The notes beneath the pieces were generated by a model. The model was not told the origin of the DNA, searched no databases, and was given only the letters and a program-made list of their open reading frames with translations. Positions 25,492 to 46,699 of a stretch of 64,000 nt of DNA are shown here, one piece after another. Numbering within the stretch: the first letter of the stretch is position 1; each line of letters starts with the position of its first letter. Made by a program: the position numbers and the translations under genes. Source of the stretch: Shigella phage vB_SflM_004; sequence record MK295205. One strand, given 5' to 3'.

Positions 25492-25568
25492 TGGTGTTGA
25501 AATGATGCTCATGGAAGAGTACCTTATACTATATATTGTATAGGAGACTTGTATGACTATTTCAGAAA

Positions 25569-25751
25569 TTGAAGTTCAACTGCAATGTGCTGGATATTCT
25601 CAAAGTGAGATTGAGGCTATGTGCATCATCATTTGCAGTAGCCATAAGCACCTCAAGCTTTCCAGAAATTCGTCTTAAGGTTGATATTTTTATTGCTGGA
25701 GGTAAGATTATCAAGGATAAGACAGGCTACCTTAAAGGTGAACGTCTATGA
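25569..25751 (+). CDS. hypothetical small protein
   Basis: 60-aa ORF (TTG start in track), stop overlaps next ATG (ATGA); C-terminal KIIKDKTGYLKGERL recurs in diverged copies at 40650 and 45830. Confidence 0.35.
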   Translation: MKFNCNVLDILKVRLRLCASSFAVAISTSSFPEIRLKVDIFIAGGKIIKDKTGYLKGERL

Positions 25752-25957
25752 GCCATCGTGGAAGAACTCATCTTGCCATGATGCAAGGTGCTTCAAAAGA
25801 GACTATCAAGAATCGGAAGAAAACTCTTTTTGACAGAATGAATAGACTCATTGATAATGCAAGCCTACCTAACTCTGAAAAGGTTTTCTTGAAAGGGAAT
25901 CTGAAGAGTATTGCACAGGAACTTATTGACATTGAATTTTGGAGACACCAAAAATGA
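25748..25957 (+). CDS. hypothetical small protein
   Basis: 69 aa; diverged copies of its 5' end with its RBS occur at 36520 and 40265. Confidence 0.45.
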   Translation: MSHRGRTHLAMMQGASKETIKNRKKTLFDRMNRLIDNASLPNSEKVFLKGNLKSIAQELIDIEFWRHQK

Positions 25958-26205
25958 CATACGCAGACGTTATTCAGCAACTTCACGACAACTGCTATAC
26001 CCCAGAGTTGATTCAGGAGATGTGTATTGTAGTGATGCCTAGCAAGTTCGTAAAAGCCTTTAGAAATGAAAATTTCACATCTGATGAGTTCTTTGAAATA
26101 AAAGACGGAAAGGTTGTATGTGAAATGGGTTACCCAATGGCTGCATGGTACAAGGGGGAACCTTGGCAGAAAACTGGATGGAGTATCTTTAATGAAACTT
26201 TATAG
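25954..26205 (+). CDS. hypothetical small protein
   Basis: ATG with GGAGACA SD, ATGA overlap with upstream stop; contains [11 protein letters not shown] segment repeated at 39573 and 40571. Confidence 0.45.
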   Translation: MTYADVIQQLHDNCYTPELIQEMCIVVMPSKFVKAFRNENFTSDEFFEIKDGKVVCEMGYPMAAWYKGEPWQKTGWSIFNETL

Positions 26206-26335
26206 CATTTGGGGAAGAGTTGGTGAAGGTTATGACTGGACTCTTCTTAAAACAAATGTTAAAAGTAACGAGATAGCTTACTACAAAATCTATTACCATA
26301 AAACTTTTAGAGAGGTAGAGTATCGTGAGCAATAA
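26192..26335 (+). CDS. hypothetical small protein
   Basis: internal ATG (MKLYSIWGRVGEGYDW) with GGATGGAG SD. Confidence 0.3.
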   Translation: MKLYSIWGRVGEGYDWTLLKTNVKSNEIAYYKIYYHKTFREVEYREQ

Positions 26336-26589
26336 AGAGCAAGAAGCTTTAGCAATCTTCAAGAGCGAAGACAAATCAATAGCTATTGGACTACGACCCC
26401 GAAACAGGGGTCAGACTATCAATGGTACTTAGATTTGTGTAAAATGAAATCTGTAGAGCCAGTTGATGAAACCCGATTCAAAGAACTGTATAATATCTGC
26501 CAAGAGGGTTATGAAGAACATTACGAAGGTTCTTTGAATCCTGTAAATTCAAAAGCTTCAGACTTATTTTACTTGGAAGTTTAGAGAGA

Positions 26590-26763
26590 GTAGTCCTACT
26601 GGTTGGATGTAACCCTTCTTATGAGAATAAGGATGCTTCTTACAGACTTCCTCCGGTATCACGAGGCAATAAGAACTTCAACTCTCGTGCCATTAGCAGG
26701 GATGTTATTGTAGTTCGCTGCCCAAATTCTCAAGACTACTACTTCTTACAAGTATGGAAAGAA
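26590..26763 (+). pseudogene. fragment of lipoprotein gene (paralog of 45889-46158) lacking a start codon
   Basis: translates to LLVGCNPSYENKDASY...IVVVRCPNSQ..., matching the 45889 lipoprotein; no in-frame start upstream. Confidence 0.4.
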
Positions 26764-26804
26764 TAGTCAGTCACATACTACTGTTTTTGATTGAGGATAT
26801 TAAT

Positions 26805-27011
26805 ATGCAGGTTCTTGTAAATTTTATCTATAAGTATGAAAACATCTTCAGTAACATGACTGTAGCACAACGTAATCCTGTTATACCACGAGAAGGAAAA
26901 AAGGCAGGAAATTATAGTTGGAACTACAAAGTTGAAGAAGTCAAACACAAATTCAAAGATGGTTATGACCACCAAGTTGTAAATGTGTATTTAAAAGGTA
27001 AGTGGCAATGA
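26805..27011 (+). CDS. hypothetical protein
   Basis: ATG (MQVLVNF) with GAGGAT SD. Confidence 0.4.
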   Translation: MQVLVNFIYKYENIFSNMTVAQRNPVIPREGKKAGNYSWNYKVEEVKHKFKDGYDHQVVNVYLKGKWQ

Positions 27012-27397
27012 GTGAAAAAAGGTTATTCAAAGAGTCCTACAGTAATCTGAAGATGGGTTATCAAGGCTACTCAATACCTTGGTATGAAGATAAGAAAAAA
27101 CAGTATTCAAACCCTTTTATATATCAACCTGTAAAACTCTCTGTACTGGAGTTTTGGCATGAAACTGGAGCTACGCCATACCAATTTGACAACATGGAAT
27201 ATGCGCGTATTTGTAAAAGTCTTGGTGCAAGACAAGTTGATAATATCATTGAACATTTGAAGGATTTGTATAAAGATTTTGCTGGATACTTATACGAGAA
27301 ACAGTTTGGGGAGTGCTTAAAATACCCAGATGGGCACTCGTTTTTCACAAAAGGTTGTCTTAATGGTAACATAAAAATTGCATACAAAGGCTTGTGA
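27008..27397 (+). CDS. hypothetical protein
   Basis: ATGA start/stop overlap with upstream ORF; 129 aa. Confidence 0.45.
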   Translation: MSEKRLFKESYSNLKMGYQGYSIPWYEDKKKQYSNPFIYQPVKLSVLEFWHETGATPYQFDNMEYARICKSLGARQVDNIIEHLKDLYKDFAGYLYEKQFGECLKYPDGHSFFTKGCLNGNIKIAYKGL

Positions 27398-27507
27398 GGC
27401 ACGTAATATGATTTTTATACTAGATTGAGACTACCATACCCAGATAGCTCCTTTTCCTTATCTAGCAATGCAATGACGCACTCTGGGAATATTGTTTCTG
27501 TTGAAAA

Positions 27508-28114
27508 ATGATAAACACAGATGGTCACAAGTCTGTTCAGTTATTGCTTGATGGTAAAGGCTACCAAGCTAACCGTCTAGCAATACTATATGTGGATGGA
27601 TACCTGCCTGATAAAACCTTAGAGCGTAATGCTGAACAGCAAGCTCCAGGTTGACCATAAGAATGGAGATGGTTGGGACAATAGGTCCAAGATAAGTCAT
27701 AAGAAATATTTGAAGTTCCCTGCTGACGCTCAACTTAAATTTAAGGGTTTCGTTGCAGGATTTCAAGAGATGCTGACTCAGAAAGCTTTTACAGCATATT
27801 CTCGTGAGAACACGGTATACAACATTCCTATAGAGTTGATTCCTGATGTTCTTCTTATGCTGAAACTGCACAAAGATGTTGAGGATTTCGATGGTGAGAT
27901 TTATGCTCATGGTTGGGACTTAGAAGATATTGTTTCGATGATTAAGAATGCTGACAATCCAGACCGTCACCTTCTTAAATTCTACTGGTATGATATCTGT
28001 GACAAGACTAAATCTTGGCCTGAGCGTCGTGAAGTTTCACCATTGTACAGCTTCACAAAACTCTTGCAATCGGTCAAGAAAGAAAACTCCTTCAACGAGT
28101 GTTGTCACCGTTAA
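27508..28114 (+). pseudogene. disrupted HNH-type endonuclease
   Basis: N-terminal fragment (GYQANRLAILYVDGYLPDKT) in one frame and HNH motif VDHKNGDGWDNR in another; junction coincides with a 25-bp fragment also present near 45760. Confidence 0.4.
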
Positions 28115-28137
28115 TACTCCGGGATTAAGCAAGATGC

Positions 28138-28147
28138 ACGGGGGGGG
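28138..28147. repeat. G10 homopolymer
   Basis: cacggggggggggtt; ten consecutive G in an otherwise AT-rich intergenic stretch. Confidence 0.8.
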
Positions 28148-28494
28148 GGTTAAATTAAAGTAACTGGTGTCAAAACTGATAAACGTGGTCATGGTAAGTT
28201 CGTTGTAGAGACTCTTCCTAACGTCCCTATCTGGGTTGCCAAAAGGTGTACAGAAGATAAGTAAAAGCCCTGAAGAGTTTATCGGGAAACCTTTAACTGT
28301 TCAGTTCCAGAAGATGAGTTTCGAGCAATGATACGTTTATTATCATTGGCTTACTTCACAAGTAAACTCTTAAGTATAACATACAAAGCCAAGGTAAAAA
28401 CTATCATCTTGGTATGTTTGACACACCGTAACTGACTTAGAAAATTTGGTGAGTATACTGAGCATCATAAACCAACGGGTACTCACCAACATCA

Positions 28495-28810
28495 CTTAAG
28501 AGTCTTTCTAAGGGGTTTTTAAGTGATGCTCGGTAAGGTTCGGTTCGGTTGGGTGTGGTATGGTGGTGTAAGGTGGTGTAAGGTGGTGTCAGGTGTAGTA
28601 TGGTGCGGTGAGGTTCGGTATGGGTAGTTAGTCTCAGCTACATTAAAATGAGACTTACCTTTTTAAAAGGTCTTTAATAGGGTCTTTTAATAAGGTGATG
28701 TGAGGTGGGGTCTGGTCTGGTTTGGTAAGGCGCGGTCTGGTTTGGTAAGGTAAGGCTCGGTAGGATGTATGGTAGTAGCCACGTTAAAAATCTACAGGCA
28801 TCTAAGAAAT
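28495..28810. repeat. array of two ~150-bp composite repeat units with GGT-periodic tracts
   Basis: units share an AT-rich leader (aaaaggtctttaa.agggtcttttaat), a 60-70 nt tract of GGT-containing ~7-nt periods and a 3' hairpin motif (agtctcagctacattaaaatgagact). Confidence 0.7.
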
Positions 28811-28853
28811 CTTCTGTTGAGGGTTCTTTACAAACAACTTAACAATTAACTAA

Positions 28854-29453
<600 letters not shown>

Positions 29454-29455
29454 TT

Positions 29456-29896
29456 ATGAATACAAAAGCATTAGCAGCAAAATTTAGTTACGGTGATACT
29501 GTATCACACTCTGAGATGGACACCTTCTTAGGTATTGTGAAGCCGACTTATCAAGGTGACATTGTTAAGTACGAAGATGAAATGAAAGCTTACGCACTTA
29601 CACGTCTAAACCGACTTGAGAAGTTTATTGAGAAGCTTCTTAAAGAAGAGAAGATTTATCTGGTCACTTCAATGGGTGTTGGTTATCGTGTGGTGGAACC
29701 TAAGCATCAAGCAACTATTGCAAAACGTAAAATGTCTGGTAAGATTGGTCGTGCTTTAAAACAAGCCACTCAAGCGATTGAGAATGTGAACACTATGGTA
29801 CTTAGCCATCAAGAACGTTCACGACTGATTGAACAGCAAAACCACTTAGCTGCTATGAAAGCTAACATTAATAAGCAACGTAGAAAACCTTTCTAA
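29456..29896 (+). CDS. hypothetical protein
   Basis: 146 aa, basic C-terminus; followed by a terminator. Confidence 0.5.
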   Translation: MNTKALAAKFSYGDTVSHSEMDTFLGIVKPTYQGDIVKYEDEMKAYALTRLNRLEKFIEKLLKEEKIYLVTSMGVGYRVVEPKHQATIAKRKMSGKIGRALKQATQAIENVNTMVLSHQERSRLIEQQNHLAAMKANINKQRRKPF

Positions 29897-29906
29897 GTTG
29901 ACTAGG

Positions 29907-29931
29907 TAGCCTCTTCGGAGGCTCCTTTTTA
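29907..29931 (+). terminator. rho-independent terminator
   Basis: hairpin GTAGCCTC-TTCG-GAGGCTCC followed by TTTTT. Confidence 0.65.
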
Positions 29932-30355
29932 AAAGGTCTTTAAACAGGGTCTTTTAATGAGGTAGTGTTCGGTCTGGTTAGGTCTGGTCTAGTTCGGTTT
30001 GGCAAGGTGGGGTTAGGTATGGGTAGTTAATCGGAGCTACATAAAAATTCGATTGCACCACTTAAGAGTCTTTAAATTATATTCGAAAGAGTATCTCATA
30101 GGGTTTTTAAGTGTTGTTTGGTATGGTACGGTTCAGTGGTGTATGGTTTGGTTCGGTGGTGTAAGGTGTGGTCCGGTAAGGTATGGGTAGTTAGTCTCAG
30201 CTACATTAAAATGAGACTTATCTTTTTAAAAGGTCTTTAAACAGGGTCTTTTAATGAGGCTGTGCTCGGTACGATTCGGTTGGGTCAGGTAAGGTTGGCG
30301 AGGTCAGGTCGGGTGCGGAAGGATGGCAGTAGCCTTATAAAAAATCTGCCAAATA
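29926..30355. repeat. array of three ~130-160-bp composite repeat units with GGT-periodic tracts
   Basis: same unit architecture as 28495-28810; both flavours of leader and 3' motif present. Confidence 0.7.
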
Positions 30356-31326: not shown

Positions 31327-31452
31327 TATGAAACGTGAAAATGCAATCTTTAACGATAACTTTGCAATTGGCTTCTATGGTAAACCAACTCCGGCAGAGA
31401 AGCTTTATGGTAATGCAATTCTGGAGACCTTGAAAGAGGTTTAAGAGCTGGT

Positions 31453-31683
31453 ATGAGGTACATTGATGCAAACCGTGTAAGAGGTTATATGGCAATTGGC
31501 TCTGCAATCTCTAACATTAAGCTGGAGACTACCAGTGCTAAGAAGGTACGAGACCACTTCATCAAAGAGTTGTCAGAGATTGTGGATGGTGTTGATATCA
31601 AGGCTGTCTGGTTAGATGTTGAAGGTCACAACTACACCACTTTTGTATTTAAAAATGAGGATATCAAATGTCTCTTCCCTTAA
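31453..31683 (+). CDS. hypothetical protein
   Basis: 76-aa ORF; a 38-codon ORF at about 31327-31443 might be its frameshifted N-terminus. Confidence 0.35.
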   Translation: MRYIDANRVRGYMAIGSAISNIKLETTSAKKVRDHFIKELSEIVDGVDIKAVWLDVEGHNYTTFVFKNEDIKCLFP

Positions 31684-32060
31684 AACTTGATTTATACTTT
31701 GGTTACAGTGTATTACAGGGTAGCATACTTTCACTACCAAAGTCAGATTACCGTTGTGATTTAGGTTCTGTGAAACGTGCATCACACATGAACAGCAACA
31801 TTTTAGGCTTGCAGACACTTCACAGGTGGCTTGAGGAAGATGGGCATTTGAATGAGTATCTTCACCAACTCGAACTAGCCAAAGAAGAAGGGCATATGGG
31901 TTGGGATTTACTACCCCATCTGTACAAACCTGCAAGCCCTATGGAGATACGCTATAACGAACAAGCGATTGATAGTTATAACAAATATAATATAACTATT
32001 GGCTTAAAATCTTGGTTAGATTATGACAAATCATTATACAGACCATTGGAAAGCGTGTAG
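31668..32060 (+). CDS. hypothetical protein
   Basis: 130 aa; GAGGA SD upstream of ATG. Confidence 0.45.
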   Translation: MSLPLKLDLYFGYSVLQGSILSLPKSDYRCDLGSVKRASHMNSNILGLQTLHRWLEEDGHLNEYLHQLELAKEEGHMGWDLLPHLYKPASPMEIRYNEQAIDSYNKYNITIGLKSWLDYDKSLYRPLESV

Positions 32061-32212
32061 CAAAAGGTATTGCTTATGATGAAAAGGTTGACTGGAATAC
32101 ACAAAAGTGTATAAAATTCTTCAAGTACGATAATGACAAAGATACTTTTGTAGAGGTTTAACATGAAAATTGGAATTACCCTTTGCCAGCCCGAAACAGG
32201 GGTCTTAACATT

Positions 32213-32494
32213 ATGAAAGCTACAAATCATACTGAGAAGACATTCTTGATTGATACAAACTATGATGCAGGAACTATTGAGTTCATTGATGAAGACACTG
32301 CTGATTCCTTGTGTGTTCTTCCTGCTCACTTATTTACTCCAGAGCTACGTGAGAGTCGTTCTATTGAAGTTAATCTTGAGCCAAGTATTGAACTGTACTC
32401 AGATACACAGTATCCAAGAAGTTTTAAAGGATTGGCAGACCTCCACATAGTAGTAGGATGGTTATTGGAAGCCAAGCCGGAGGTGGTCATGTAG
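32213..32494 (+). CDS. hypothetical protein
   Basis: internal ATG (MKATNH) with AGGGG SD; upstream hairpin cccgaaacaggggtc. Confidence 0.4.
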   Translation: MKATNHTEKTFLIDTNYDAGTIEFIDEDTADSLCVLPAHLFTPELRESRSIEVNLEPSIELYSDTQYPRSFKGLADLHIVVGWLLEAKPEVVM

Positions 32495-32661
32495 TAACTG
32501 CTGAGTGTGAACAAGGCACTATCAAGCTGACAGGTGATTTTGGTTCTATGAGTTTCTTAGACTTTGTTCCAAAACACTTTGAAGACTTCCTGTCAAGTGA
32601 AGTTGATGACCTTGATTTCATACTAAAATTTGAACGCACTTTTAAGGTAAACAAAAAATGA
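32458..32661 (+). CDS. hypothetical protein
   Basis: 67-aa ORF; followed by a 41-codon Cys-rich ORF (about 32659-32784). Confidence 0.35.
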   Translation: MVIGSQAGGGHVVTAECEQGTIKLTGDFGSMSFLDFVPKHFEDFLSSEVDDLDFILKFERTFKVNKK

Positions 32662-32926
32662 AAATCTTAAGCGGAGTATCACAGTGTTACATGAATGATG
32701 GTGAGCCAGTTAAATGCTGCCATTGTGGAGGTGAGAACTTCCAAGGTGAAGTTTCAGAGATTGTCTCTGGCAATATCAATTAAGCGCACAAGGTCTGGTG
32801 TGTATATGCACACATTTTATCTTTTTGGGCTTATGGAAGTTATGAACCACAACCCCACCTTATTTACCATCCAAACAGGATTGTGAAGCGTGTTCTGAAC
32901 TGGTTCATTATCAAAGGATTTACAAA

Positions 32927-33366
32927 ATGATTAAGTTAATTTTTGCAAGTGGTATTAACGGGGAGTTTGGCACAGCTACTGGAATGCCTTGGCCTCGTAA
33001 TAAACAGATTTTAGGAAGCAGACTGTTAACCAGTTAGTCTTGATGGGTAGCGAAACTTGGAAGACTCTTGGGAGCAAGCCTTTGCCAAACCGTGAGAACA
33101 TTGTCTTGACAAACTCTCTTGACTTTTATGGTCTGGATTTTAAAGATGACTCTCATTGTAAAGCAAGAGTTAAGCCTGAAGCTTTTGGGGCTTTCCTGAA
33201 GTATATTGATAGCTCTATTGATGAAGATGTTTTAGTAATCGGTGGAGCCAATATCTTAATCTCAGCTTTGCCGTATGCTGACGTAGTTTTCCACAGCGTC
33301 ATTCAGGAAGTTACAGGACAGGTAATCACCGAATTGCTTGGTGGGTTTCTTCCAGTACTTGTATGA
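32927..33366 (+). pseudogene. dihydrofolate reductase, frameshifted
   Basis: N-terminus MIKLIFASGINGEFGTATGMPWPRNKQ in one frame stops at 33035; DHFR continues in the next frame from 33004 (DFRKQTVNQLVLMGSETWKTLGSKPLPNRENIVLT...VIGGANIL...LPYAD); one-base shift near 33000-33008. Confidence 0.6.
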
Positions 33367-33461
33367 CACAGATTTATTTGCTAAAGTACAGTCCAAACCT
33401 CTGGATGACAGGTAAGTGGCCTGACAAACACATTGACCACAAAGAAGAGGGCTTTTCTAAT

Positions 33462-34350: not shown

Positions 34351-34447
34351 AAACTTAAAAGGTACAAGTAGAAGCAAGTCTGGTAAGTTGTTCTGTAATT
34401 GCTTGCAAAGCTGATATGGATAGCCCAGATTAACCATAACGGCAAGA

Positions 34448-34735: not shown

Positions 34736-34740
34736 TATTT

Positions 34741-37598: not shown

Positions 37599-38788
37599 TT
37601 AAGCAACTCTCTTCCACACATAAACAACATAAGATGGTTGTTCAACACTGAAAGCTTGTCCACCACCAGATGCACCAGTTGTACCTGAGTGAGTGTGCTC
37701 AGAAGATTGAACTGTCACAGTACCACTGTGTGTATGTGAACCAATACCGACTGTGTGGCTGTGAGCACCAATACCGACTGTGTGGCTGTGGTCACCGGAT
37801 GCACCAGATGTAACATCTCCAATCGTCACAACGTGAGAGTGGTCACCTGCCCCATAAGTTGGTTGTGACGCATTACCAACACCTGCATCAGCCGTTGCCG
37901 TAATAGCATTCACACCACGTCCACCAACGTTCTGTACAAGAGCTTGGTGAGTGTGATTGCCAGAGTTGTTTGTATTCCTTGAACCATAGTCAAAAGTACT
38001 GGTATACTTAGTTCCATAGTCAAAGTCACTTGTAGATTTTGTACCATAATCAAACACACTCGTTGTCTTATTTCCGTGGTCGAAACTTGAAGCTGACGCA
38101 CTATTACCATGCGTGTGTCCACCACCAGTTAACAATACAGAGTGTGTGTGACTTGGAATGTTATTTTGAGAAAGTGCTACAGATGCACTACCAAAATTAG
38201 TTTCAACTGGTCTTGTGTCAGAATCATAACCAACTAATGCTCTACCTTTAGAGACAAGTTCCCAAGTACCACCACAAAGTAAATATGTAGATGGGTTTGC
38301 AGGGTTAACTGACAAATGGATAGTACCAATTGGGTAACTATTCTGGATAGCTCTATAAAGAGCATTCACAGCTTTTGCAGTAGCATACTTATCAGCATCT
38401 TCAGAGTAAGAGTTTGAATAAGTCCAGTATTGAATATTGGAGACATCTACCTGAATCTTGTTAGTATTGTGAGGGTTGTTCTTATCATTGATGTGGTTCT
38501 GAATAAGAGTATTAACTTCATCACTTGATAGAATATTAAGGTTCTGCCTAGCCTCTTCAACACTAACCACGTCTGACAAGTTATTAGCAGCCATTAATTG
38601 GAGTGCGTTAACAACATTACCAAGTTCTACGTGAACCTTTGTAACGCCGTGTGGGTTATTTCTTAAAGATGCGTGTGGAGCAAGTAATTGCTCAAGTGTG
38701 CAACGCTTATCCTCAAAAAAATGACACTTGTGTCAATAGGTAAAGAGGCTTGAGGCAATGCACTAATTTGAATTTCACCAACTGCCAT
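37599..38788 (-). CDS. tail fibre protein (frameshift at A7 tract)
   Basis: N-terminus from ATG at 38788 (MAVGEIQISALPQASLPIDTSVIF) continues in +1 frame after plus-strand A7 run at 38715-38721 into ...NNLSDVVSVEEARQNLN... and His-rich C-terminus; track reports only 37599-38594. Confidence 0.6.
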
Positions 38789-38790
38789 TA

Positions 38791-39189
38791 TTAGCTCCCT
38801 TTATATTCGTATGTGTAAAGGTTAGTCGTGCTAGTGGGTGCAGTTCCTGTTACTGTGTCAATTAATTCCCAACCATTGGAAACTAAATCAGGTTGCTCCG
38901 TAGCAAATGAACGAACCTCTCCAACCGTACCATTTACTTTGTTAAGCAAATAGTTAATAATATAGTTAAACCACTGGCGACCCATAGGCTCTCCCCTTAA
39001 TAGGCCAGTGGCTTGAATTTCTGGAGGTGGTAATACTTTAAGCTGGTTACTCCCTTCTTGTTGTGATTTATCTTTTCTACCTTTGACGATTTGAGCAACT
39101 TCTGCCATAATACCATAATCGCCACCAGTTACCATTTCTTTACCAGCAATAAAATAGTCACTGCTATTGTTTGTCTTGCTGACTTTCAT
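38791..39189 (-). CDS. hypothetical structural protein
   Basis: 132-aa ORF directly upstream of tail fibre gene. Confidence 0.4.
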
Positions 39190-39601
39190 ATAATCTTTAC
39201 TGGTACTTCCACCAGTTTTGTCAACTCTAAAGTAACCATCCCTAATACCAGCATCTGCAAAGCTACCAAGCTTGTTAGCCTCCAGAGAACCACCTGTGTT
39301 GTTCGTAATAAGACCCTTGTTAGTGTCTGTAACAAACCAGTTGTTGTTCTCATCAGTAATTGCCAGACGTTATTCAGCAACTTCTACAGGAGTCCACGCA
39401 GTACCATTTAGCGTAATATCTCTTATGATAACTGCTACACTAATAGTTGCCAGAGTTAATTCAGGAGATGTGTATGCTGTATCTACAACGTTGTTTCGAG
39501 TGTTTACACGAACAACAATACCACCCGTCATAGGTGTGATATGTTCAAAGATTTGACTAAACGTTGCATTGTAGTGATGCCTAGCAAGTTCGTAAAAGCC
39601 T

Positions 39602-40174
39602 TTAACAGTGACACTTTAAGGTCTGCACCAAATGCACGAATACCAGCAGGTTTTGTGTCCCAGATTGCTTGTGCGATGTTAACATTCTTATTGTTGAAAG
39701 AAGAAGCCCATAAAGCTTACTGTGAAGCCCATCATAATTTGTAGTCTCTGTGTCGTTCTCTACACCAGAAGCATCAGATACACCTTGAACCCTCTTGACA
39801 GCAGCTACAATAGCATCTAAAGTACCTACACCAGTAACGGCTAAGGATTCTAGATAACGCTGTCTAAGTTCTGTATCAGTTTCTTCGTTACGACCTGCTG
39901 TTAAATCGTATCTGTTAAATACCCCATCAAGACCATCTACAGTCGTTTCAATCTCAATAAAAACTCCACGGAGAGTTTGCAAAACTCCAGTTTCTTCAGC
40001 TACAACGTCACTAATTGATACAATCTTTGTAAATGTTAGGAAGGTCGTTGCAGTTACAACCATAGGGTTTGTTCTTGCAATGATATCTCCAGTATCTTTA
40101 TAGATTCTCAGAAGAGAACCGTCATTGATGACTTCAGCTTTTGCTGCAATACCACCATTGATAGAGTCTGCCAA
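39602..40174 (-). CDS. putative tail/baseplate protein, 3' end disrupted
   Basis: 190-aa ORF; C-terminal ~45 codons read through an inserted fragment (39565-39740) homologous to the 25954 gene. Confidence 0.35.
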
Positions 40175-40244
40175 GTGTTGTAACAGAGTCGTAATGGTAT
40201 CTGAGCTTGTAGGATGGTAAGAGTACTAAGTTGACAAGGTGCCC

Positions 40245-40750
40245 TTATACAATATCTTATATAGGAGGGCTTATGAGCCACCGTGGAAGAACCCATGCAG
40301 CGATGATGAAAGGTGCTTCAAAGGAGACTATCAAGAATCGTAAGCAGAAGTATTTCAAATGTGGTGTCATCTGTTGTTACTTTATTCTTTTGAGATGTTT
40401 GAGAGAATGAACAGGCTAATTGACAATTCATCTCTTTCAGGTTCTGAGAAGGTTTTCTTGAAAGGTAATCTGAAAAGCATTGCACAAGAACTTATTGACA
40501 TTGAGTATTGGAGACATCAAAAATGACACTTGCAGACGTTATTCAGCTCCAGAGTTAATTCAGGAATGTCCATTGTAGTCATGCCTAGCAAGTTCGTAAA
40601 AACCTTTAACAACGACGCTTTAAGGTCTACACACATCCTTATCGTGATTGCAAAAGACCGTACTGGAGTACTCAAAGGTGAACGTATTGATATTCTGGAG
40701 TCTGGGGAAGTGTTGGTAAAGGTTTTGACTGGACACTTCTTCGTGATTCC
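40245..40750. repeat. degraded mosaic copy of the small-gene cassette at 25700-26260
   Basis: colinear ~85 percent identical segments including the RBS and start of the 25748 gene, the SEKVFLKGNLKSIAQELIDIE segment, VVMPSKFVK segment and KDRTGVLKGERI segment, with internal indels. Confidence 0.7.
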
Positions 40751-40852
40751 TTAAAAGTTCTGGTATAAAAACACAAAAGGGGAAGACCTTTTACAGTCTC
40801 CCCCTTATTAGGATTTGTCAAACGTTAAACGTAGTGATTGTTGAAGTGTAGT

Positions 40853-41257
40853 CTAACTTCTCACAACCAAAAATCCAAGTTTTAGAGTTCTGGTCACGTC
40901 CAAGTTCAATCTGTGGAAGCTCTTGCAACCAAGCATTATTACCAGAACTGAACCGGATGGGTCATAAATTACGAAGTTAGATGAAATGTCTTCTTCAAGT
41001 TCCATGTCATCTTGTTTAGCTTGAATTGCAGAAAGCATCTGGTTAGATAGAGAAGTCTGCATTAGCTCAATCTCAATCGTACCTGTTTTATCTGCGTTTC
41101 TTGTCAGAGCTACTTGACCACCTGCACCTACAACTGGCGTAACAAGTGGAGAAGTTCTCTGAAGACGTAAGAATGAGTCTGGTGCAAAACCTTCAATGGC
41201 AATGCCATTCCAGCTACAAACTACATCTTTAGGGGAATATTGCTGATACATAGCCAT
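40853..41257 (-). CDS. hypothetical structural protein
   Basis: 134-aa ORF in tail module; 3' end possibly frameshifted. Confidence 0.4.
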   Translation of the reverse strand: MAMYQQYSPKDVVCSWNGIAIEGFAPDSFLRLQRTSPLVTPVVGAGGQVALTRNADKTGTIEIELMQTSLSNQMLSAIQAKQDDMELEEDISSNFVIYDPSGSVLVIMLGCKSFHRLNLDVTRTLKLGFLVVRS

Positions 41258-41272
41258 TCCTATTTACTCCTA

Positions 41273-41581
41273 TTATTCGTAAGCCACTGTGCCTTTCAAG
41301 TCCACATCCAAGATTGCCCCTGCTAAGATACCGTGGAAGGTAATGTCTTTCAGGATACGAGCTTTCTTATCTGCAAGTGATACTTGTGAGGCTTTAGGAA
41401 CAGTAACGGTATAAGTAGACAAAAAGTTTCTGTTAACTGCTCTCTGAAGAGATGTTTCAATGACCTGACGAACACGAGTAATACCTGTATCATCATAAGT
41501 AATCTTACCACCCTTCTGATTAATTAGCAAGTCTCTTAGAGAAGTTTTCAAGTCTGATTCAAGCCAATCGACATCACTCAT
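41273..41581 (-). CDS. hypothetical structural protein
   Basis: 102-aa ORF. Confidence 0.4.
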   Translation of the reverse strand: MSDVDWLESDLKTSLRDLLINQKGGKITYDDTGITRVRQVIETSLQRAVNRNFLSTYTVTVPKASQVSLADKKARILKDITFHGILAGAILDVDLKGTVAYE

Positions 41582-41584
41582 TAT

Positions 41585-41929
41585 TTAAAAACATACACCA
41601 CCAGAAGTGATACCTCTACGCACTACGAGAGGTAGACTATCGTGAACAATAAGGTTACAGCTACGTGCATCAAGTGCTGACTTCTGAATGCTTGTCAGAG
41701 GTCTCTTGTTAGCTGGCTGCATAGATGCTGCTACACCAGTTAACTGAGCATTACCCCAAGCAATAGAACCTGCATCGTATGGAGCACCATAAGCAATGTA
41801 AGCCATTTCTGGGTAGTCAAAGCTTGCTGTGTGATGCCATAGACATACTGTACGAGTGTACTTACTCTTAGAGAGTTGTGTGAAAGCAATGGTTGCAGAA
41901 GCCAGTTCAGTTCCTTGCAGAGCTTTCAT
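41585..41929 (-). CDS. hypothetical structural protein
   Basis: 114-aa ORF. Confidence 0.4.
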   Translation of the reverse strand: MKALQGTELASATIAFTQLSKSKYTRTVCLWHHTASFDYPEMAYIAYGAPYDAGSIAWGNAQLTGVAASMQPANKRPLTSIQKSALDARSCNLIVHDSLPLVVRRGITSGGVCF

Positions 41930-42129
41930 GTCATTGCTTGCCTTGGAGTAATTTTTCTATCTGGCTGTAATCCCTCATTGCAGTAACGAACTGTGAAGTT
42001 CTGTCTTCAGTTGCAATAAAGTACCAATCAGTTGAGTACGTTTCAATTGCAGCCAGAGCTACAGAAGCACTATCAGCAGTTGTTGCAGAGATTGAAAGAG
42101 TCTGTGCAGTTGTTGTAACTCTTACGAGG

Positions 42130-42375
42130 ACAAAAACGCTTCTTATAGCCTCCCACCAGAGATGCAAGATTGCAGAGTCTATAAGTTACATGGTGATGCC
42201 ATAAGCAATAGCCCCTGTATCAAGCACCGAGACATTGTTGTTGTCAGGTGTCCAAACTGTGGTACTCATCTCTAACCTTTGTTTTAGCTCAAGCATAATG
42301 CTGTGAGCACCTTTACCATTTACAGTAATTAATACTGGAATCTGAAAAGCAATTCAAACAACAACATCTTACACG
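42130..42375. repeat. diverged fragment of the lipoprotein gene (45990-46090) between structural genes
   Basis: shared strings cctcccaccagagatgcaagattgcagagt and ttacatggtgatgc.ataagca. Confidence 0.6.
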
Positions 42376-42381
42376 AATTTA

Positions 42382-42669
42382 TCAAGAACCCAACCATAAG
42401 GTGTGACAGCATCTTGACAGTAAACTGTAATAAACGGTTGGTCTGGTTGCTATGGCAAAAATGATTCTTGTATCTGTTAGTCTGATACCTTCAGGTAAAA
42501 CAATCTGTGTACCATTCTTTACAGAACCCTTAATATAAGGTTGAATATTACCTTTGCAGGGAATGTCAACAATATCTTCAGAAGCTACCCAATCACCATC
42601 GTTATTGTAATAACCATCTTCAGATACTTTGCGTTTCACTACAAAGCTGTGTCTGTTTAAGAGTCTCAT
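42382..42669 (-). CDS. hypothetical head-tail protein, 3' end disrupted
   Basis: 95-aa ORF whose last ~20 codons run into the inserted fragment. Confidence 0.35.
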   Translation of the reverse strand: MRLLNRHSFVVKRKVSEDGYYNNDGDWVASEDIVDIPCKGNIQPYIKGSVKNGTQIVLPEGIRLTDTRIIFAIATRPTVYYSLLSRCCHTLWLGS

Positions 42670-42953
42670 TTTTTAATACCTTTCTTAGTAGAAATTTTAT
42701 AAGCAAGGTTATCTCGTAAATCCCCAGTTTCTACAAGAGGTGCGTTGAAACCTTTTTGTTTAATTGTAGAAGGAGCGTTAGGAGGGAGGATAGCAGTATT
42801 ACCAAAGCCTCTCTTAATTGCCTTTTGAGCATTCTTTGCAAATGCCTCTAAAGTTTCTGAGGGGTCTGTATTAAGACTATTTAGTTGCTTATAGAGATTC
42901 TTCTTAGTCTGCTCTAACAAGGTCTGTCTGTGTAACATCATAGTAATTAGCAA
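42666..42953 (-). CDS. hypothetical structural protein
   Basis: 95-aa ORF. Confidence 0.4.
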   Translation of the reverse strand: MLITMMLHRQTLLEQTKKNLYKQLNSLNTDPSETLEAFAKNAQKAIKRGFGNTAILPPNAPSTIKQKGFNAPLVETGDLRDNLAYKISTKKGIKK

Positions 42954-42971
42954 GGATTACGACGACGCATG

Positions 42972-43283
42972 TCAATCACACACTGCATAAGGGAGGCCAC
43001 TAACAGAGCTTTTAACTAGGTCGTCATATACAGCTTTAAGAGATTTGAATCTGGAAGAGTTACGTAAGTAAACACCACCAACCTTCTCATCTCCCATCTT
43101 GGCTACTTGAAAGAGTAAATATTTAAGAGCTTTGATGGCTGCTTTCTTTTCATCCTTTCCAGATTCTTGGTAGAACCACTCTAGCACCGATTGGTCAATG
43201 AGGATTTCACTGTTATTGAGTGAGGTGCTCAAGATGGAAGTCCTAGTAAAAGGGTTATTAGCGGGGTCGCCTGTATAACACAT
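42972..43283 (-). CDS. hypothetical structural protein
   Basis: 103-aa ORF downstream of capsid gene. Confidence 0.4.
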   Translation of the reverse strand: MCYTGDPANNPFTRTSILSTSLNNSEILIDQSVLEWFYQESGKDEKKAAIKALKYLLFQVAKMGDEKVGGVYLRNSSRFKSLKAVYDDLVKSSVSGLPYAVCD

Positions 43284-43304
43284 TATAACCCTCCTTTCAA
43301 GTTA

Positions 43305-44447
43305 TTACTCAGCGTCTGAACGAACGTCAACAAGCAGTTGAGGACGTGTGCAGTATGGCAGCATGTAAGAGTGAGCTTCGAAGTCAATACCTTCGTCACG
43401 GTCTTTCTCATATTCGAACACATACAGTTCCTGACCCAGAGTGTTTGCATAACCCATCTTAGGACATGGAGCTATATCTACTGTTATGATGTTGTTCACT
43501 CCACTCAACATTGCTACGTTAGGGAATGCGTGACCTACACCTACAGTTGAAGCATCAACACCATCGATGCTAACCAGAGTATGAGTCTTACCACGCTTAT
43601 CTTTGAACTTACCGTTGTACTGTACGAATACACAACCGTAGTAGAAACGGTTCATGTGAGCCTGAACACCGTCAGTTCCACCAGTTCTCAGAGAACCAGT
43701 AATCTGTTGCCAAGCAAGCGGAGTCTGCTGTGCAAGGTATGCGTCACGAATCTTAGGATGCTTGATAAGCTTGCTGAAGAAAGTTCTGTCAACAACGATG
43801 TGAATTTCTTCACCGTTGATTACAGTACCTCAACGTAATCCAATAGTTCCACGAGAAGGTTCGATATCAGAGTTCGGGTTGTCCAAGTCGAAGTAGATAG
43901 TCTTCTTAGTTACGTCGAACTGCTTGTACAGGTCTGCGTACAGAACACCGTTAGCATCGATAACTTTACCCTTCAGAGCTTGCATGAACAGGAACTCACG
44001 AGTAATATCGGAGTTGGTTCGAATCGTCATCAGCTTCTTAGCACGTACAACTGCTTCAGTAGTCAGTTCATTTGCAGTGCCTGGCTGACGAACACCCTGA
44101 ATCTCATCAGGAGTGATGCTTTCAACTTCCTTGAAGTACATCATTGGGAAGCTAATCTGACGAACACGCTCAGGAGCGCTAGTCTCAGCTTTACGGCTAG
44201 TACGGTCTAGATAAGACAGTTGCAGGTCTGCGTAGAAGTTAACGATACATACAGAGTCTGCCTGAGCTTCTTCACCTGCTGCGACCTTAGTACCATCAGC
44301 TTTCAGGGTTGGACTTACACTGTATTCTGTGCTGGCTACTGGAGCGTACTCTTTACGAGAGTGACCAGTTGGGGTGATTTCTTCCCAAAGGAAAGCATCA
44401 TTCATAAGTTCTCTGTTACCTAAATGTGTAAAACCTTGATATGCCAT
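43305..44447 (-). CDS. major capsid protein (lambda gpE-like) with in-frame TGA
   Basis: track ORFs 43830-44447 and 43305-43655 are in the same frame, separated only by TGA at 43830-43832 and 58 stop-free codons; combined ~380 aa with E-like C-terminal pattern. Confidence 0.55.
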
Positions 44448-44459
44448 TATTTGTGTTCC

Positions 44460-45407
44460 TTATTTCTTGATAAGAGTATTCAAAGCATTCTGGAGAGCCA
44501 GTTTGCGTTGGTCAGCGTTAGCATTAGCACTTGCTTCTGGAGCGGTATCTTTACCGTCATCCACTTCTGCTTCGCCGTTATTGCCAAGTTCTTCCATAGC
44601 GTTTGAGTGTTCCAGAACAGCACCAGCCGCTTCTTTCAGCTTAGTGATTTCAGAATCCTTCTCAGACATGGCAGAAGCATGGGACGCGATAGTTTCATTA
44701 AGTTTCTGGTTAGCACCTTCCATAACATTCATAAACAGAACACTCAGAGGGTTATCAAGACCAGCACCTAAAATAGCTGTTGCAGCTTCTTTTGCGTCAA
44801 ATCCAAAAGCTTCAGCAGATGCAGAAATCTTACCAGTTAAATCTGTAAGTGCTGCTTCCTGTTCCTTAGCTTTCATTTGAGCAACCTGAAGACGCAGAGC
44901 TTCTAGTTCTTGCTTTTCTTGTTCAGTCATTTCTTCACCTGAATTGTTTGTGTTTAAACTTACAGGAGCTTCTTCAGAACCTTGTAAGTAATTTAAGAAA
45001 TCATCTTGAGACATGATAGAATTAATTAAACCAAGTTCAAGAGCTTCCTGAGCAGAATAAACATTTGCCTCAGTATTCTTTACAGCTTCTTCAGAGATAT
45101 TACGTGAGTCTGCAACAAAACTAGTAAAAGTTTCGTAGGTGTCATCAATTCTCTTTTGAAGTCTATTCTTGCTTTCTTCTGATATTGCTGGTGATGGAGA
45201 ACCCATACCTTTAAATTCACCAGCCTTAATAACGTTAATTGTAACGCCATTCTTTTCAAGTGATTGACGTAGAGATTGGTGGACCATAATTACACCGATT
45301 GAACCAACATCTGCATCTGGTGATGCAATAATTTCTTCAGCAGAAGATGCAAGAGCATATGCAGCAGAGCAAGCAAACTCATCTACATAAGCAATAATTT
45401 TCTTTTT
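44460..45407 (-). CDS. prohead protease (S49/SppA-like) fused to scaffold-like domain, 5'-truncated
   Basis: protease-like sequence KKIIAYVDEFACSAAYALASSAEEIIASPDADVGSIGV...NVIKAGEFKGMGSP runs upstream of first ATG (45287) without a start codon and is cut by a stop at about 45480; C-terminal half is Ala/Glu/Lys-rich coiled coil. Confidence 0.55.
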   Translation of the reverse strand, partial: KKKIIAYVDEFACSAAYALASSAEEIIASPDADVGSIGVIMVHQSLRQSLEKNGVTINVIKAGEFKGMGSPSPAISEESKNRLQKRIDDTYETFTSFVADSRNISEEAVKNTEANVYSAQEALELGLINSIMSQDDFLNYLQGSEEAPVSLNTNNSGEEMTEQEKQELEALRLQVAQMKAKEQEAALTDLTGKISASAEAFGFDAKEAATAILGAGLDNPLSVLFMNVMEGANQKLNETIASHASAMSEKDSEITKLKEAAGAVLEHSNAMEELGNNGEAEVDDGKDTAPEASANANADQRKLALQNALNTLIKK

Positions 45408-45418
45408 GCTAAGAGAAA

Positions 45419-45610
45419 ATGAACAAAGAAGATAAGCATAAAAATGCTGTACGAACTCCTGATGGAAAGGTTCAATCCTTCATCCTGACAGTTGGTGGAA
45501 AACCGTTTCGTTGCCACTGCGGAGCAAACTGTTTTCATAAACCAGATAAAAATGATTTAGAGCTTTACGCATGTAATGCTTGCAATACTTGGTATCACTC
45601 AGAGGAATAA
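45419..45610 (+). CDS. hypothetical Cys-rich small protein
   Basis: 63 aa, CHCGANCF...CNACNTW; its 3' part recurs at 49420-49470. Confidence 0.35.
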   Translation: MNKEDKHKNAVRTPDGKVQSFILTVGGKPFRCHCGANCFHKPDKNDLELYACNACNTWYHSEE

Positions 45611-45885
45611 AATGACAATACTGTACAAACAAAATAAAGATGGCTCTTTTAACATCTGGTCATGTACTGCTGTAGGTGACAAGGTTATTACAACCTCGGT
45701 AAAGAAAATGGCAAGATGAAGAGTATACAGCAGAACCTAAAAACATCGGTAAAAAGAATGAGCGTAACGCTGAACAGCAAGCTCTCTTTGAAGTTGCTGC
45801 TAAGTATAAAAAGCAGGTTGACCGCTAAGATTGCAAAAGACCGTACTGGAGTACTCAAAGGTGAACGTATTGATATTCTGGAGTT
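45540..45885. repeat. chain of short fragments copied in order from loci at 49420-51960 and 40640
   Basis: exact or near-exact 23-50-nt matches to 49420-49470, 49725-49750, 50105-50135, 51185-51235, 51428-51455, 51925-51958, 40640-40695, in the same order. Confidence 0.7.
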
Positions 45886-45888
45886 GCT

Positions 45889-46158
45889 ATGAAGAAAATG
45901 TACAGTCTCTGGGGAAGTATTATGTGGAAAGCAGTAATTGCGCTTGGTGTTGTTTTTCTATCTGGCTGCAACCCTTCTTATGAAGATAAAAATGCTTCTT
46001 ACAGTCTCCCACCAGAGATGCAAGATTGCAGAGTATACAAGTTACATGGTGATGCTATAAGCAGAGATATTGTTGTTGTCAGATGTCCAAACTCCCAAAC
46101 AACAACATCTTATAGCTATGGCAAAAATGGTCAATCACACACTACGGTTATTGAGTGA
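45889..46158 (+). CDS. putative lipoprotein
   Basis: signal peptide with lipobox VFLSGC; 89 aa; degraded paralog at 26590-26763. Confidence 0.5.
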   Translation: MKKMYSLWGSIMWKAVIALGVVFLSGCNPSYEDKNASYSLPPEMQDCRVYKLHGDAISRDIVVVRCPNSQTTTSYSYGKNGQSHTTVIE

Positions 46159-46699
46159 GGTTTTTTCTATCAAGAACTCGATACTGCTTCTCTGAAAGAT
46201 TTGCAAACTTACAGAAACGACGAACAAAACGCATGTGTCGTGATTTTACTCGTGGTAACCATTTTGCTGCCAGAGCAGACGTGTTAGGGTCTAACAGTGC
46301 AGCTTCTAAATGCTTGAAAGCATCTGTTTCGTAACGTGTACCAACAAAGATTTTGAAGTCGTCGTAACGACCTAAGTCAGAAATCTTATCCATGATACGC
46401 AATACTTGGAACTCATCAAGTATACCATCAGAGATTGCCTTGGTAAGAGTATAACGGAACGCTTTGCGCTCTCCCATACCTTCTCGTGCATCTCGCATGT
46501 GTAACAGGATTCGAACTGCTACATCAATGTCTTCTCGCATAGCCTTGTAAAACAAGTTTGGAAGACTCTCTACATTTGACCTGCTTGAACCAGCAGCTTT
46601 GTAGAAATCTACCAGTGCAGACATTGAAGAGGTGTGGTTAACAGCACCGTTTTCAGTTAAACCTGCATGTAGATGCGAGTGTTTAAATAATTCGCTCAT
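46148..46699 (-). CDS. hypothetical protein (possibly N-terminal fragment of a larger gene)
   Basis: 183 aa; GLTENGAV...RILLHMRDAREGMGERKAFR is reminiscent of TROVE/DUF2828-type N-termini (weak, from memory); ORF ends where the lipoprotein block begins. Confidence 0.35.
   Translation of the reverse strand: MSELFKHSHLHAGLTENGAVNHTSSMSALVDFYKAAGSSRSNVESLPNLFYKAMREDIDVAVRILLHMRDAREGMGERKAFRYTLTKAISDGILDEFQVLRIMDKISDLGRYDDFKIFVGTRYETDAFKHLEAALLDPNTSALAAKWLPRVKSRHMRFVRRFCKFANLSEKQYRVLDRKNLTQ

Follow-up and report, generated by a model that had tools for sequence, protein, structure and literature searches.

Dispersed small-gene fragments in the Shigella phage vB_SflM_004 sequence are ordered pieces of one Felixounavirus segment and probably trace an alignment or consensus merge

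The window analysed here is a 64,000-nt stretch of Shigella phage vB_SflM_004 (MK295205; window positions are marked w where needed), which reads as a Felix-O1-like (Ounavirinae) "genome" squeezed into 64 kb. Its features are listed in Table 1. The left-hand Felixounavirus-type block is colinear with vB_EcoM_ULIM8 (ULIM8; 95.5%), every large ORF in it is intact, and synonymous changes far outnumber non-synonymous ones (54:1 in the primase, 38:3 in NrdA). From 25.5 to 61.7 kb the sequence is a Mooglevirus-type scaffold. The resident region after the polymerase gene is 96% identical to KPS64 27463-27936 from w25496 and 90.6% identical to Sf15 as far as w27509. The main part of the scaffold consists of colinear pieces that map onto KPS64 31925-79397. 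A natural repeat-flanked gp45/gp46 module is found at w28433-30316, and a 51-nt tandem duplication is also present in the window. Past the end of the donor pieces described below, the scaffold is clean again at rIIB, which has no indels relative to KPS64 and a synonymous:non-synonymous ratio of 60:14; rIIA has no indels relative to ULIM8 (102:39). On a circular map, the rIIA end is contiguous with the left-hand block, the window ending at ULIM8 11500 and starting at ULIM8 11731.

Table 1. Features of the window and near-exact or diverged repeat pairs found by self-BLAST. L006 is the phiWec172 donor locus.
Feature	Window position	Strand	Description
Felixounavirus-type block, clean	1-25493		Early and replication genes up to the stop of the 909-aa DNA polymerase
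Resident post-polymerase region	25496-28430	+	Mooglevirus-type cassette, lipoprotein-like gene, Sf15 gp62 homologue, DNA ligase
Pass 0	26381-28427	+	KPS64-gp36-like HNH endonuclease gene pieces written over the resident cassette/ligase region
Mooglevirus-type scaffold	30317-60147		Mosaic of KPS64-, Sf15- and Moogle-like sequence; large blocks gone, most genes broken
Ghost-thread pass 1	31449-39628	+	L006 4606-5525, ~25 pieces; polymerase end, entire HNH endonuclease gene, first part of the Felixounavirus cassette
Tiny donor piece	31575		L006 4626-4638
Tiny donor piece	31782		L006 4639-4652
Tiny donor piece	33005		L006 4791-4802
Ghost-thread pass 2	39698-45828	+	L006 5065-6047 = ULIM8 36940-38383; HNH 3' end, whole cassette with lipoprotein gene, ligase 5' end
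Ghost-thread pass 3	45827-57963	+	L006 5546-6810 = ULIM8 37299-39143; remainder of the cassette, nearly entire DNA ligase gene
rIIB, intact, Mooglevirus-type	60148-61694	-	94.6% nt and 97% aa identity to KPS64
rIIA, intact, Felixounavirus-type	61709-64000	-	6.2% divergence from ULIM8, only 79% identity to KPS64
Repeat pair	36509-36589 = 40248-40328		98.8%
Repeat pair	36871-36934 = 40393-40456		96.9%
Repeat pair	37279-37316 = 40456-40493		100%
Repeat pair	39567-39628 = 40571-40632		90%
Repeat pair	40646-40701 = 45829-45884		100%
Repeat pairs	25747-25819, 25829-25978 and 26002-26062 vs 40272-40608		83-90%
Repeat pair	26023-26062 = 39565-39604		97.5%
Repeat pair	42120-42207 = 45976-46063		89.8%
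Repeat pair	26604-26796 ~ 45963-46160		72%

The scaffold is extensively damaged. KPS64 positions 41126-41849, 42465-48972, 50333-51126, 51322-51632, 52122-52473, 53719-54069, 55262-66082 and 79397-88675 are missing from it. The tape measure, portal and terminase (TerL) genes, gp63-70, gp80-85 and gp115-136 are absent from the scaffold, and the window contains no tRNAs. Most of the genes that remain at 25.5-60 kb are frameshifted; DHFR, ThyA, lysozyme, MCP, sheath, protease and baseplate J are each frameshifted or truncated. The synonymous:non-synonymous ratio is ~1:1 in the scaffold, compared to a clean sequence with natural synonymous bias in the flanking 29 kb. Sequencing-error models fail, as the patches that look "noisy" copy another gene exactly and no errors are seen in the first 25 kb.

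An earlier note on this DNA had described cassette fragments recurring within and between structural genes, and had proposed BLAST of the window against itself at word size 11 as a check. This search reproduced the recurring fragments, with E-values of 1e-8 to 1e-35 that place the repeats well beyond chance. Two versions of the cassette were also confirmed: the resident copy (25,496-26,900) is Mooglevirus-type (96% to KPS64), and those scattered elsewhere match the Felixounavirus type (97-100% to ULIM8 or phiWec172). As had been claimed, fragments lie inside structural genes and coincide with frame breaks; the homologues affected are those of tail-fibre, baseplate, sheath, capsid and protease genes, and most frame breaks at 25.5-60 kb coincide with donor pieces. 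The "lipoprotein" label is reasonable given the LSGC/LVGC lipobox in the gp42-like ORF. Terminal inverted repeats and target-site duplications are absent from the two largest blocks, and no transposase or integrase homologue appeared in the window because it maps nearly wholly onto Ounavirinae genes. One label changed: at 45760 and 55745 the supposed HNH fragments derive instead from the DNA ligase gene (ULIM8 38299-38327 and 38751-38795). The fragments do recur, but the ~10 sites originally listed are too few, as more than 70 pieces are spread over 26.4-58.0 kb.

What had gone unnoticed is the strict order of the pieces. The fragments, numbering more than 70 and 8-430 nt long, are in many cases 100% identical to natural phages and are consecutive parts of one ~2.5-kb Felixounavirus segment carrying the polymerase end, an HNH endonuclease gene, the small-gene cassette and DNA ligase. 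This segment is the expected natural sequel to the window's own polymerase gene, and the left-hand block is its natural upstream neighbour. It is laid down in three overlapping passes across 31.4-58.0 kb, with an earlier KPS64-type HNH pass at 26.4-28.4 kb. In this earlier pass, pieces of KPS64 26980-27397 ascend at w26381, 26568, 27513, 27647, 28043, 28220 and 28390 and alternate with ligase pieces, and the resident ligase is fragmented. Pass 1 crosses homologues of gp50-52, DHFR, ThyA, holin, tail-fibre and gp61; its 20 BLAST-detectable pieces ascend in donor order with donor gaps of ~0 and window gaps of 28-2043 nt, and the donor bases absent from these pieces lie in the expected intervals as exact matches of 10-15 nt. 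Two of its pieces that are contiguous in the donor, 33400-33445 and 33860-33927, are 100% identical over 46 nt to the HNH gene in TH10 and others and over 68 nt to a natural HNH gene, respectively. Pass 2, crossing baseplate, sheath, capsid and protease homologues, ascends without a break from ULIM8 36940 to 38383. Long contiguous donor blocks coincide with large scaffold deletions: those of pass 2 (40243-40744, 42119-42258 and 45407-45828) fall exactly at the deletions of KPS64 42465-48972, 50333-51126 and 55262-66082. Pass 3 runs through the gp90-gp108 region and through non-coding sequence at 55.5-57.3 kb with at least 21 ascending pieces, many of them at 100% (e.g. 50100-50129, 51182-51230, 51426-51454 and 51919-51959), and the piece at 51184-51233 substitutes an equal length of gp99. 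The phiWec172-type HNH gene (L006 4623-5135) is found as more than 15 pieces from w31449 to w36314 and again at w39698-w40267, with no intact ORF in the window. The fragments are thus successive, non-overlapping pieces of one donor on one strand and in donor order, rather than the many separate dispersal events that had been implied. Near-exact repeat pairs occur where two overlapping passes put down one donor stretch twice, and the ~85% pairs are the Felixounavirus version compared with its resident Mooglevirus homologue.

Order, completeness and register were quantified using phiWec172 L006 4606-6810 as the donor. All 50 BLAST-detectable pieces in w31449-57963 were on the plus strand and none on the minus strand. 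The longest increasing subsequence comprised 42 of the 50, compared to 11.3 on average and at most 17 in 10,000 shuffles, and ULIM8 as donor gave the same ordered series. Successive pieces are ~0-10 nt apart in the donor vs 30-2800 nt in the window. Almost every donor base is retained, and many "missing" bases lie in the interval expected for them, in exact pieces of 8-18 nt. KPS64, ULIM8 and w1-25400, searched as controls, gave 1-2 stray donor matches each, compared to 49-54 for w28.6-58 kb. Exact substitution of a piece's own length of KPS64-aligned scaffold was observed for 17 of 38 pieces (median absolute difference 1 nt), and the in-register overwriting is visible in individual alignments. 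Interior in-register identity between the pieces and the scaffold that they replaced was 53.6%, against a null of 26.1% (sd 1.9), and the tiny pieces match the replaced scaffold at 8-13 of 12-18 nt. Junction microhomology is 0-3 nt, and no phage database records spanning the tested junctions were found. Some scaffold indels fall outside the identified pieces; natural divergence may account for these, as may further rows or pieces that escaped recognition.

The window therefore combines the traits of a merge artefact: an ordered same-strand donor that is almost complete, in-register replacement of equal length, placement driven by similarity, and an incoherent genome, with genes lost, that is absent from relatives. 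This anatomy suggests that the dispersed fragments are the trace of an alignment/consensus merge and not of DNA mobility (probability about 0.88), and we infer that the merge arose at an alignment/consensus step in assembly, finishing or sequence construction. A ~30-kb Felixounavirus sequence, running from rIIA through the polymerase, HNH, cassette and ligase genes, would have been combined with an incomplete Mooglevirus-type scaffold. Its final ~2.5 kb could not have aligned in place because the scaffold lacks an HNH endonuclease gene at that site, and would have been stretched as a gapped alignment row across ~26 kb of unrelated scaffold, with the aligner putting residues down in small blocks at chance matches. 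Wherever the row held a base the scaffold base would have been overwritten, and columns without data would have been discarded. Such a merge would leave patches that are ordered, confined to one strand and of equal length and that frameshift host genes, with donor sequence contiguous at scaffold gaps and fragments duplicated where donor rows overlap (three passes). It would also give a non-viable 64-kb "genome", and judged on its sequence this "genome" is non-viable. An HNH gene follows the polymerase in phiWec172, Meda and TH10 and is absent in ULIM8 and Sf15, and it was probably this presence/absence polymorphism that derailed the alignment. If the merge reading is true, the fragments are not a genuine biological feature. 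The anatomy indicates that the junctions are chimeric artefacts, the outcome that the earlier note had named as fatal to its own account.

An autoregressive generative model could instead have written the window, or it could be another deliberate synthetic product, in which a real Felixounavirus stretch is followed by blended Mooglevirus/Felixounavirus sequence. The abrupt quality change at the polymerase stop, the blend of two genera and several Mooglevirus lineages, and the 51-nt tandem duplication would suit this origin, which we nevertheless consider unlikely: the donor is emitted nearly complete and in order with each piece resuming at the next base, overwriting is of equal length and in register with placement that tracks similarity, and clean sequence returns at the right-hand end (rIIB, rIIA). 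An ordered donor, in-register overwriting and similarity-based placement are traits that belong to dynamic-programming alignment rather than to token sampling. The in-register identity (53.6% vs 26%) rules out random synthetic overwriting. Mis-assembly of a mixed phage sample at the graph or overlap stage (de Bruijn or long-read chimera), with no alignment-consensus step, is highly improbable. It would account for a two-genus chimera whose joins fall between genes (at the polymerase stop and between rIIB and rIIA) and for large missing blocks, as low-coverage assemblies show, but de Bruijn joins require shared k-mers and the junction overlaps are just 0-3 nt, pieces of 8-50 nt are below any read length, and graph traversal does not yield ordered equal-length overwriting.

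We regard as very remote the prospect of a real molecule, a defective chimera generated in a mixed Felixounavirus and Mooglevirus infection through dozens of successive copy-choice or MMBIR-like template switches and then sequenced. More than 140 switches would be required, using a single strand and pieces down to 8 nt, and each return must hit both the exact next donor base and the in-register scaffold position; we know of no polymerase that keeps two independent registers. Without packaging and head genes the product could not propagate. These demands weigh against the relatedness of the two genera, the plausibility of co-infection in Enterobacteriaceae hosts and the resemblance of 0-3 nt junction microhomology to illegitimate recombination. 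Biological dispersal by a mobile element, PeSL-like regulatory cassettes or homing-endonuclease-driven gene conversion is scarcely credible: although the donor includes an HNH homing endonuclease gene, and several HNH genes and natural repeat-flanked modules (e.g. w28433-30316) occur in Ounavirinae, the "copies" do not repeat one unit but are different parts that follow one another along a 2.5-kb sequence, they substitute for sequence instead of inserting, they keep a single orientation throughout, most lie within ORFs and not at intergenic promoter/terminator sites, the largest blocks lack terminal inverted repeats and target-site duplications, and the HNH gene is shredded into more than 15 pieces without an intact ORF.

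Several known systems share some of these features. PeSL mobile regulatory cassettes mediate modular shuffling in T4-type phages and are copies of one promoter/stem-loop motif, located between genes, that swap whole gene cassettes (Arbiol et al. 2010, PMC2839356; Comeau et al. 2014, PMC4122927). The window resembles them in having short repeats tied to small early genes of a large virulent myovirus without a transposase, and by analogy the gp45/gp46 module may be PeSL-like. In contrast, the window pieces are all different, have no common motif, lie inside structural ORFs and destroy genes by equal-length replacement, and do not class as PeSLs. Nor are they a transposable or MITE-like element, being different pieces that replace sequence, with no inverted repeats or target-site duplications at the largest blocks. 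In homing, an intact endonuclease gene is inserted next to its target and homologous flanks are converted. The donor does start with an HNH endonuclease gene of variable presence, but this is cut into more than 15 ordered pieces across 5 kb and flanked by non-homologous genes, unlike homing or co-conversion mosaicism. MMBIR/FoSTeS (chromoanasynthesis) joins a handful of segments at one breakpoint in either orientation, with sequence added or deleted. The short templated segments and joints with little or no microhomology are similar, and 0-3 nt is compatible with, although not diagnostic of, this process; more than 70 ordered, in-register, single-orientation, equal-length replacements across 26 kb set the window apart from it. 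In reference-guided assembly and finishing, a global aligner can smear an unalignable insertion, which is then merged, over gap regions. The scale here is unusual for such mis-alignment artefacts (~2.5 kb over ~26 kb, in three overlapping rows and a separate HNH row), but the window has in common with them an ordered one-strand donor row, small blocks on fortuitously similar columns, in-register overwriting, loss of uncovered columns that compresses the genome, and a frameshift at every switch.

In sequence, the window belongs to the Felix-O1-like myoviruses (Ounavirinae). It is colinear with the Felixounavirus vB_EcoM_ULIM8 over positions 2-26062, at 95.5% identity. Mooglevirus genomes, for example KPS64, Sf15 and Moogle, match best (~86-93%) past the polymerase stop (25,493). 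This Mooglevirus-type sequence, here called the scaffold, extends to rIIB (60148-61694), and rIIA (61709-64000) is of Felixounavirus type once more. The top phage records reached only 96% for the left part and ~89% for the rest, and the exact polymerase and rIIB proteins were not on record. A junction 41-mer had no match in viral_contigs or metagenome_contigs, and a polymerase 41-mer had none in viral_contigs, metagenome_contigs or genome_contigs. The circular map is almost closed, with the window starting at ULIM8 11731 and ending at ULIM8 11500; therefore a whole "genome" fits in 64 kb, compared to 86-90 kb in relatives, and the source would appear to be a "complete genome" of ~64.2 kb.

When the window was compared with itself by blastn at word size 11, the repeats listed in the earlier note reappeared; that note had described small-gene fragments scattered into and between structural genes. 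Near-exact pairs are given in the table. The post-polymerase cassette at 25747-26062 paired at 83-90% with 40272-40608, 36533-36589 and 39565-39604. Repeats of a lipoprotein-like gene, a label in keeping with the LSGC/LVGC lipobox in its ORF, were found at 26590-26800, 42102-42266 and 45922-46164. The same comparison tied 45535-45820 to 49411-51959 by ordered short matches, piece after piece, a relationship that had gone unremarked. The supposed HNH fragments at 45760 and 55745 proved to be pieces of DNA ligase instead.

The DHFR/ThyA region aligned to KPS64 at ~99.5% identity, broken by "garbled" patches of 25-70 nt in which the window is unlike both KPS64 and ULIM8, even at positions where both genera agree. 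When searched against all phage records, two of these patches were found to be exact pieces of a Felixounavirus HNH endonuclease gene; their 46 and 68 nt matched at 100% in phages that include Meda, TH10 and those of phiWec172 type. They lie 414 nt apart in the window and are directly contiguous in the HNH gene. Uncorrected long-read errors and pseudogene decay were rejected, as the DHFR/ThyA patches are near-exact (up to 100%) copies and the first 25 kb shows no comparable noise. Natural scaffold divergence covers part of the mismatch (the sheath region is 90% Moogle-like) but not the patches that correspond to donor pieces.

In phiWec172, the gene order runs from the polymerase end through HNH and the cassette to ligase. 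With this phiWec172 locus (L006) as the donor reference, the whole phenomenon became one thread: L006 4606-6810 was found within 31449-57963 of the window as 50 BLAST-detectable pieces of 19-302 nt, all on the plus strand, with 100% identity in 20/50 and at least 95% in 34/50. ULIM8 as the donor gave a still more complete cassette part and also explained deviant patches in the sheath gene. The donor is the sequence naturally expected downstream of the window's own Felixounavirus polymerase gene. As controls, two natural genomes (KPS64 and ULIM8) and positions 1-25400 of the window yielded 1-2 stray donor matches, compared to 49-54 matches of the same donors at 28.6-58 kb. No phage record spanned the tested piece/scaffold junctions.

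The pieces follow donor order. The longest increasing subsequence comprised 42 of the 50, whereas 10,000 shuffles averaged 11.3 and never exceeded 17; no minus-strand donor matches were found. The thread is laid out in three successive, overlapping passes, with boundaries at 31.4, 39.7, 45.8 and 58.0 kb, each almost contiguous in the donor. Inside a pass, the next piece starts at or a few bases from the previous donor end, and successive pieces are separated in the window by 30-2800 nt of scaffold. Many donor bases uncovered by these pieces occur as exact 8-18-nt pieces in the right interval and order, of which chance would supply mostly 0.01-0.3 per gap; the donor is kept essentially entire as an ordered subsequence. 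The near-exact pairs arise because one donor stretch was laid down twice, in overlapping passes. Passes 1 and 2 account for the pairs of 36.5-39.6 kb with 40.2-40.7 kb, and passes 2 and 3 for that of 40646-40701 with 45829-45884 and for the ordered matches between 45535-45820 and 49411-51959. In the ~85% pairs, one member is the Felixounavirus donor and the other is the Mooglevirus homologue resident at 25.5-26.9 kb. In an earlier run, pass 0, KPS64 26980-27397 (a KPS64-gp36-like HNH gene) is ordered over 26381-28427, where its pieces alternate with those of the resident ligase. A 51-nt tandem duplication at 51819-51919, directly preceding a ligase piece, looks like a second Mooglevirus row 50 columns out of register; copy 2 matches KPS64 71898-71947 at 100% and copy 1 at 96%.

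Coordinates of near-exact repeat pairs, donor passes and examples of tiny donor pieces
Feature	Window position	Counterpart	Strand	Identity	Source
Near-exact pair	36509-36589	window 40248-40328		98.8%	self-blastn
Near-exact pair	36871-36934	window 40393-40456		96.9%	self-blastn
Near-exact pair	37279-37316	window 40456-40493		100%	self-blastn
Near-exact pair	40646-40701	window 45829-45884		100%	self-blastn
Pass 1	31449-39628	L006 4606-5525	+		
Pass 2	39698-45828	L006 5065-6047	+		
Pass 3	45827-57963	L006 5546-6810	+		
Tiny piece	31575	L006 4626-4638			
Tiny piece	31782	L006 4639-4652			
Tiny piece	33005	L006 4791-4802			
Tiny piece	53106	L006 6148-6159			

Scaffold was replaced by the pieces, not inserted into. 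Among 38 pieces within KPS64-aligned scaffold, the replaced length equalled the piece's own length exactly for 17, and the median absolute difference was 1 nt. The pieces sit where the scaffold resembles them, with an in-register interior identity of 53.6% compared to a null of 26.1% (sd 1.9), and the tiny pieces agree with the scaffold at 8-13 of 12-18 positions. The long contiguous donor blocks (39565-39628, 40243-40744, 42119-42258 and 45407-46161) fall exactly on the large scaffold deletions KPS64 41126-41849, 42465-48972, 50333-51126 and 55262-66082, as if donor residues spread across columns without coverage had there been pushed together. The thread is an ordered, single-strand, near-lossless donor in blocks down to 8 nt, overwriting equal lengths at fortuitous similarity and closing up where the scaffold has no data. 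Because these properties match those of a gapped dynamic-programming alignment row merged column-wise into another sequence, we consider the finding to be a chimera of computational origin, in which a consensus or merge was misaligned during assembly, finishing or sequence construction (probability about 0.88); the actual pipeline behind the merge is one that we infer. What set this off was probably the HNH gene that follows the polymerase in the Felixounavirus sequence but is missing at that site from the Sf15-like scaffold. Its presence or absence would have made the region unalignable, and the aligner would have smeared the donor downstream. To our knowledge, no transposition, homing, gene-conversion or template-switch mechanism has the properties of this thread. 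A generative-model or deliberately synthetic origin would likewise be non-biological and is unlikely, as near-lossless ordered emission and similarity-driven, in-register placement favour alignment; random synthetic overwriting is ruled out by that placement. A chimera from a de Bruijn-graph assembler is more doubtful still, given junction overlaps of only 0-3 nt and pieces shorter than reads.

The Felixounavirus part is clean, with every large ORF intact and synonymous to non-synonymous ratios of 54:1 for primase/helicase, 38:3 for NrdA and 128:23 for polymerase. Across 25.5-60 kb, nearly all genes are damaged and the ratio drops to ~1:1 (capsid 21:23, protease 20:20, lysozyme 9:24). Frameshifted or truncated genes include DHFR, ThyA, lysozyme, gp50-52, gp92, gp97, gp100, gp101 and gp103 and, among structural genes, those for capsid protein, protease, sheath, baseplate J and both tail fibres; most frame breaks coincide with donor pieces. 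Missing from the window are gp63-70 (including tape measure), gp80-85 (including portal and large terminase) and gp115-136, and the whole window has no tRNA genes, compared to a cluster of 22-26 in the relatives KPS64 and ULIM8. The scaffold is clean again (rIIB) after the thread ends at 57,963, 114 nt before the ligase stop. The ORF-coverage profile was not discriminating, since natural relatives also show ORF-poor stretches. As a phage genome, the window is not viable. In another reading, the window represents a real DNA molecule: with a Felixounavirus and a Mooglevirus infecting one cell, a replication or recombination machine would have alternated dozens of times between two templates, keeping a separate register on each, and so have made an ordered, "interleaved" chimeric genome. 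This is highly improbable, as it would take over 140 switches while two registers were kept independently, and the product would be unable to propagate. Least credible is dispersal by a mobile element, a PeSL-like process (PMC2839356, PMC4122927) or homing endonucleases, which fails all the defining features tested, and the two largest donor blocks had no terminal inverted repeats or target-site duplications. Collectively, these results confirm the observation of dispersed fragments and do not support its biological reading: the fragments are not a real biological feature.

The computational chimera offers no new mobile element and no new recombination mechanism, and its value lies in quality control. 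Roughly 36 of the 64 kb form a composite of two phage genera that is not viable, and any gene calls, "novel small ORFs", repeat families or recombination events inferred for 25.5-60 kb would be spurious. An ordered, same-strand donor subsequence that overwrites equal lengths at chance similarity is a signature suited to automatic flagging. The public records MG969405 (59.7 kb), MG969406 (109 kb) and OQ834936 (69.8 kb) are of aberrant length for the 86-90-kb Felix-O1-like group and might carry similar assembly problems.

The real biology near the fragments, namely HNH presence/absence, the gp45/gp46 module and intergenic repeats, is ordinary for these phages. The annotation of phiWec172 (L006 1656-5135) splits the polymerase into two ORFs (1656-3839 and 4069-4623) with an ~270-nt insert between them and an HNH ORF directly after the second, compared to one 909-aa ORF in the window (22762-25491). 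This suggests a mobile insert/HNH polymorphism at the 3' end of the Felixounavirus polymerase. The clean Felixounavirus block of the window also contains two intact, free-standing HNH endonuclease ORFs on the minus strand (2467-2958 and 15381-15887; 163 and 168 aa). These distant kin of KPS64 gp36 (31-39% at the amino-acid level) are ordinary homing-endonuclease genes. Between small minus-strand genes at 57560-60140 lies a natural family of ~30-95-nt intergenic repeats (for example, 59484-59574 and 59767-59856, 90%). Members of this family are also numerous at 77-84 kb of KPS64 and at the genome ends of ULIM8, and they probably represent promoter/terminator units. At 28433-30316, intact gp45/gp46 homologues (198 and 146 aa) are bounded by ~145-nt direct repeats (28553-28695 and 30116-30259, 84%). 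This module is found in KPS64 and ULIM8 and not in Sf15 or phiWec172. It has the look of a natural presence/absence cassette bounded by repeats and recalls PeSL-mediated shuffling.
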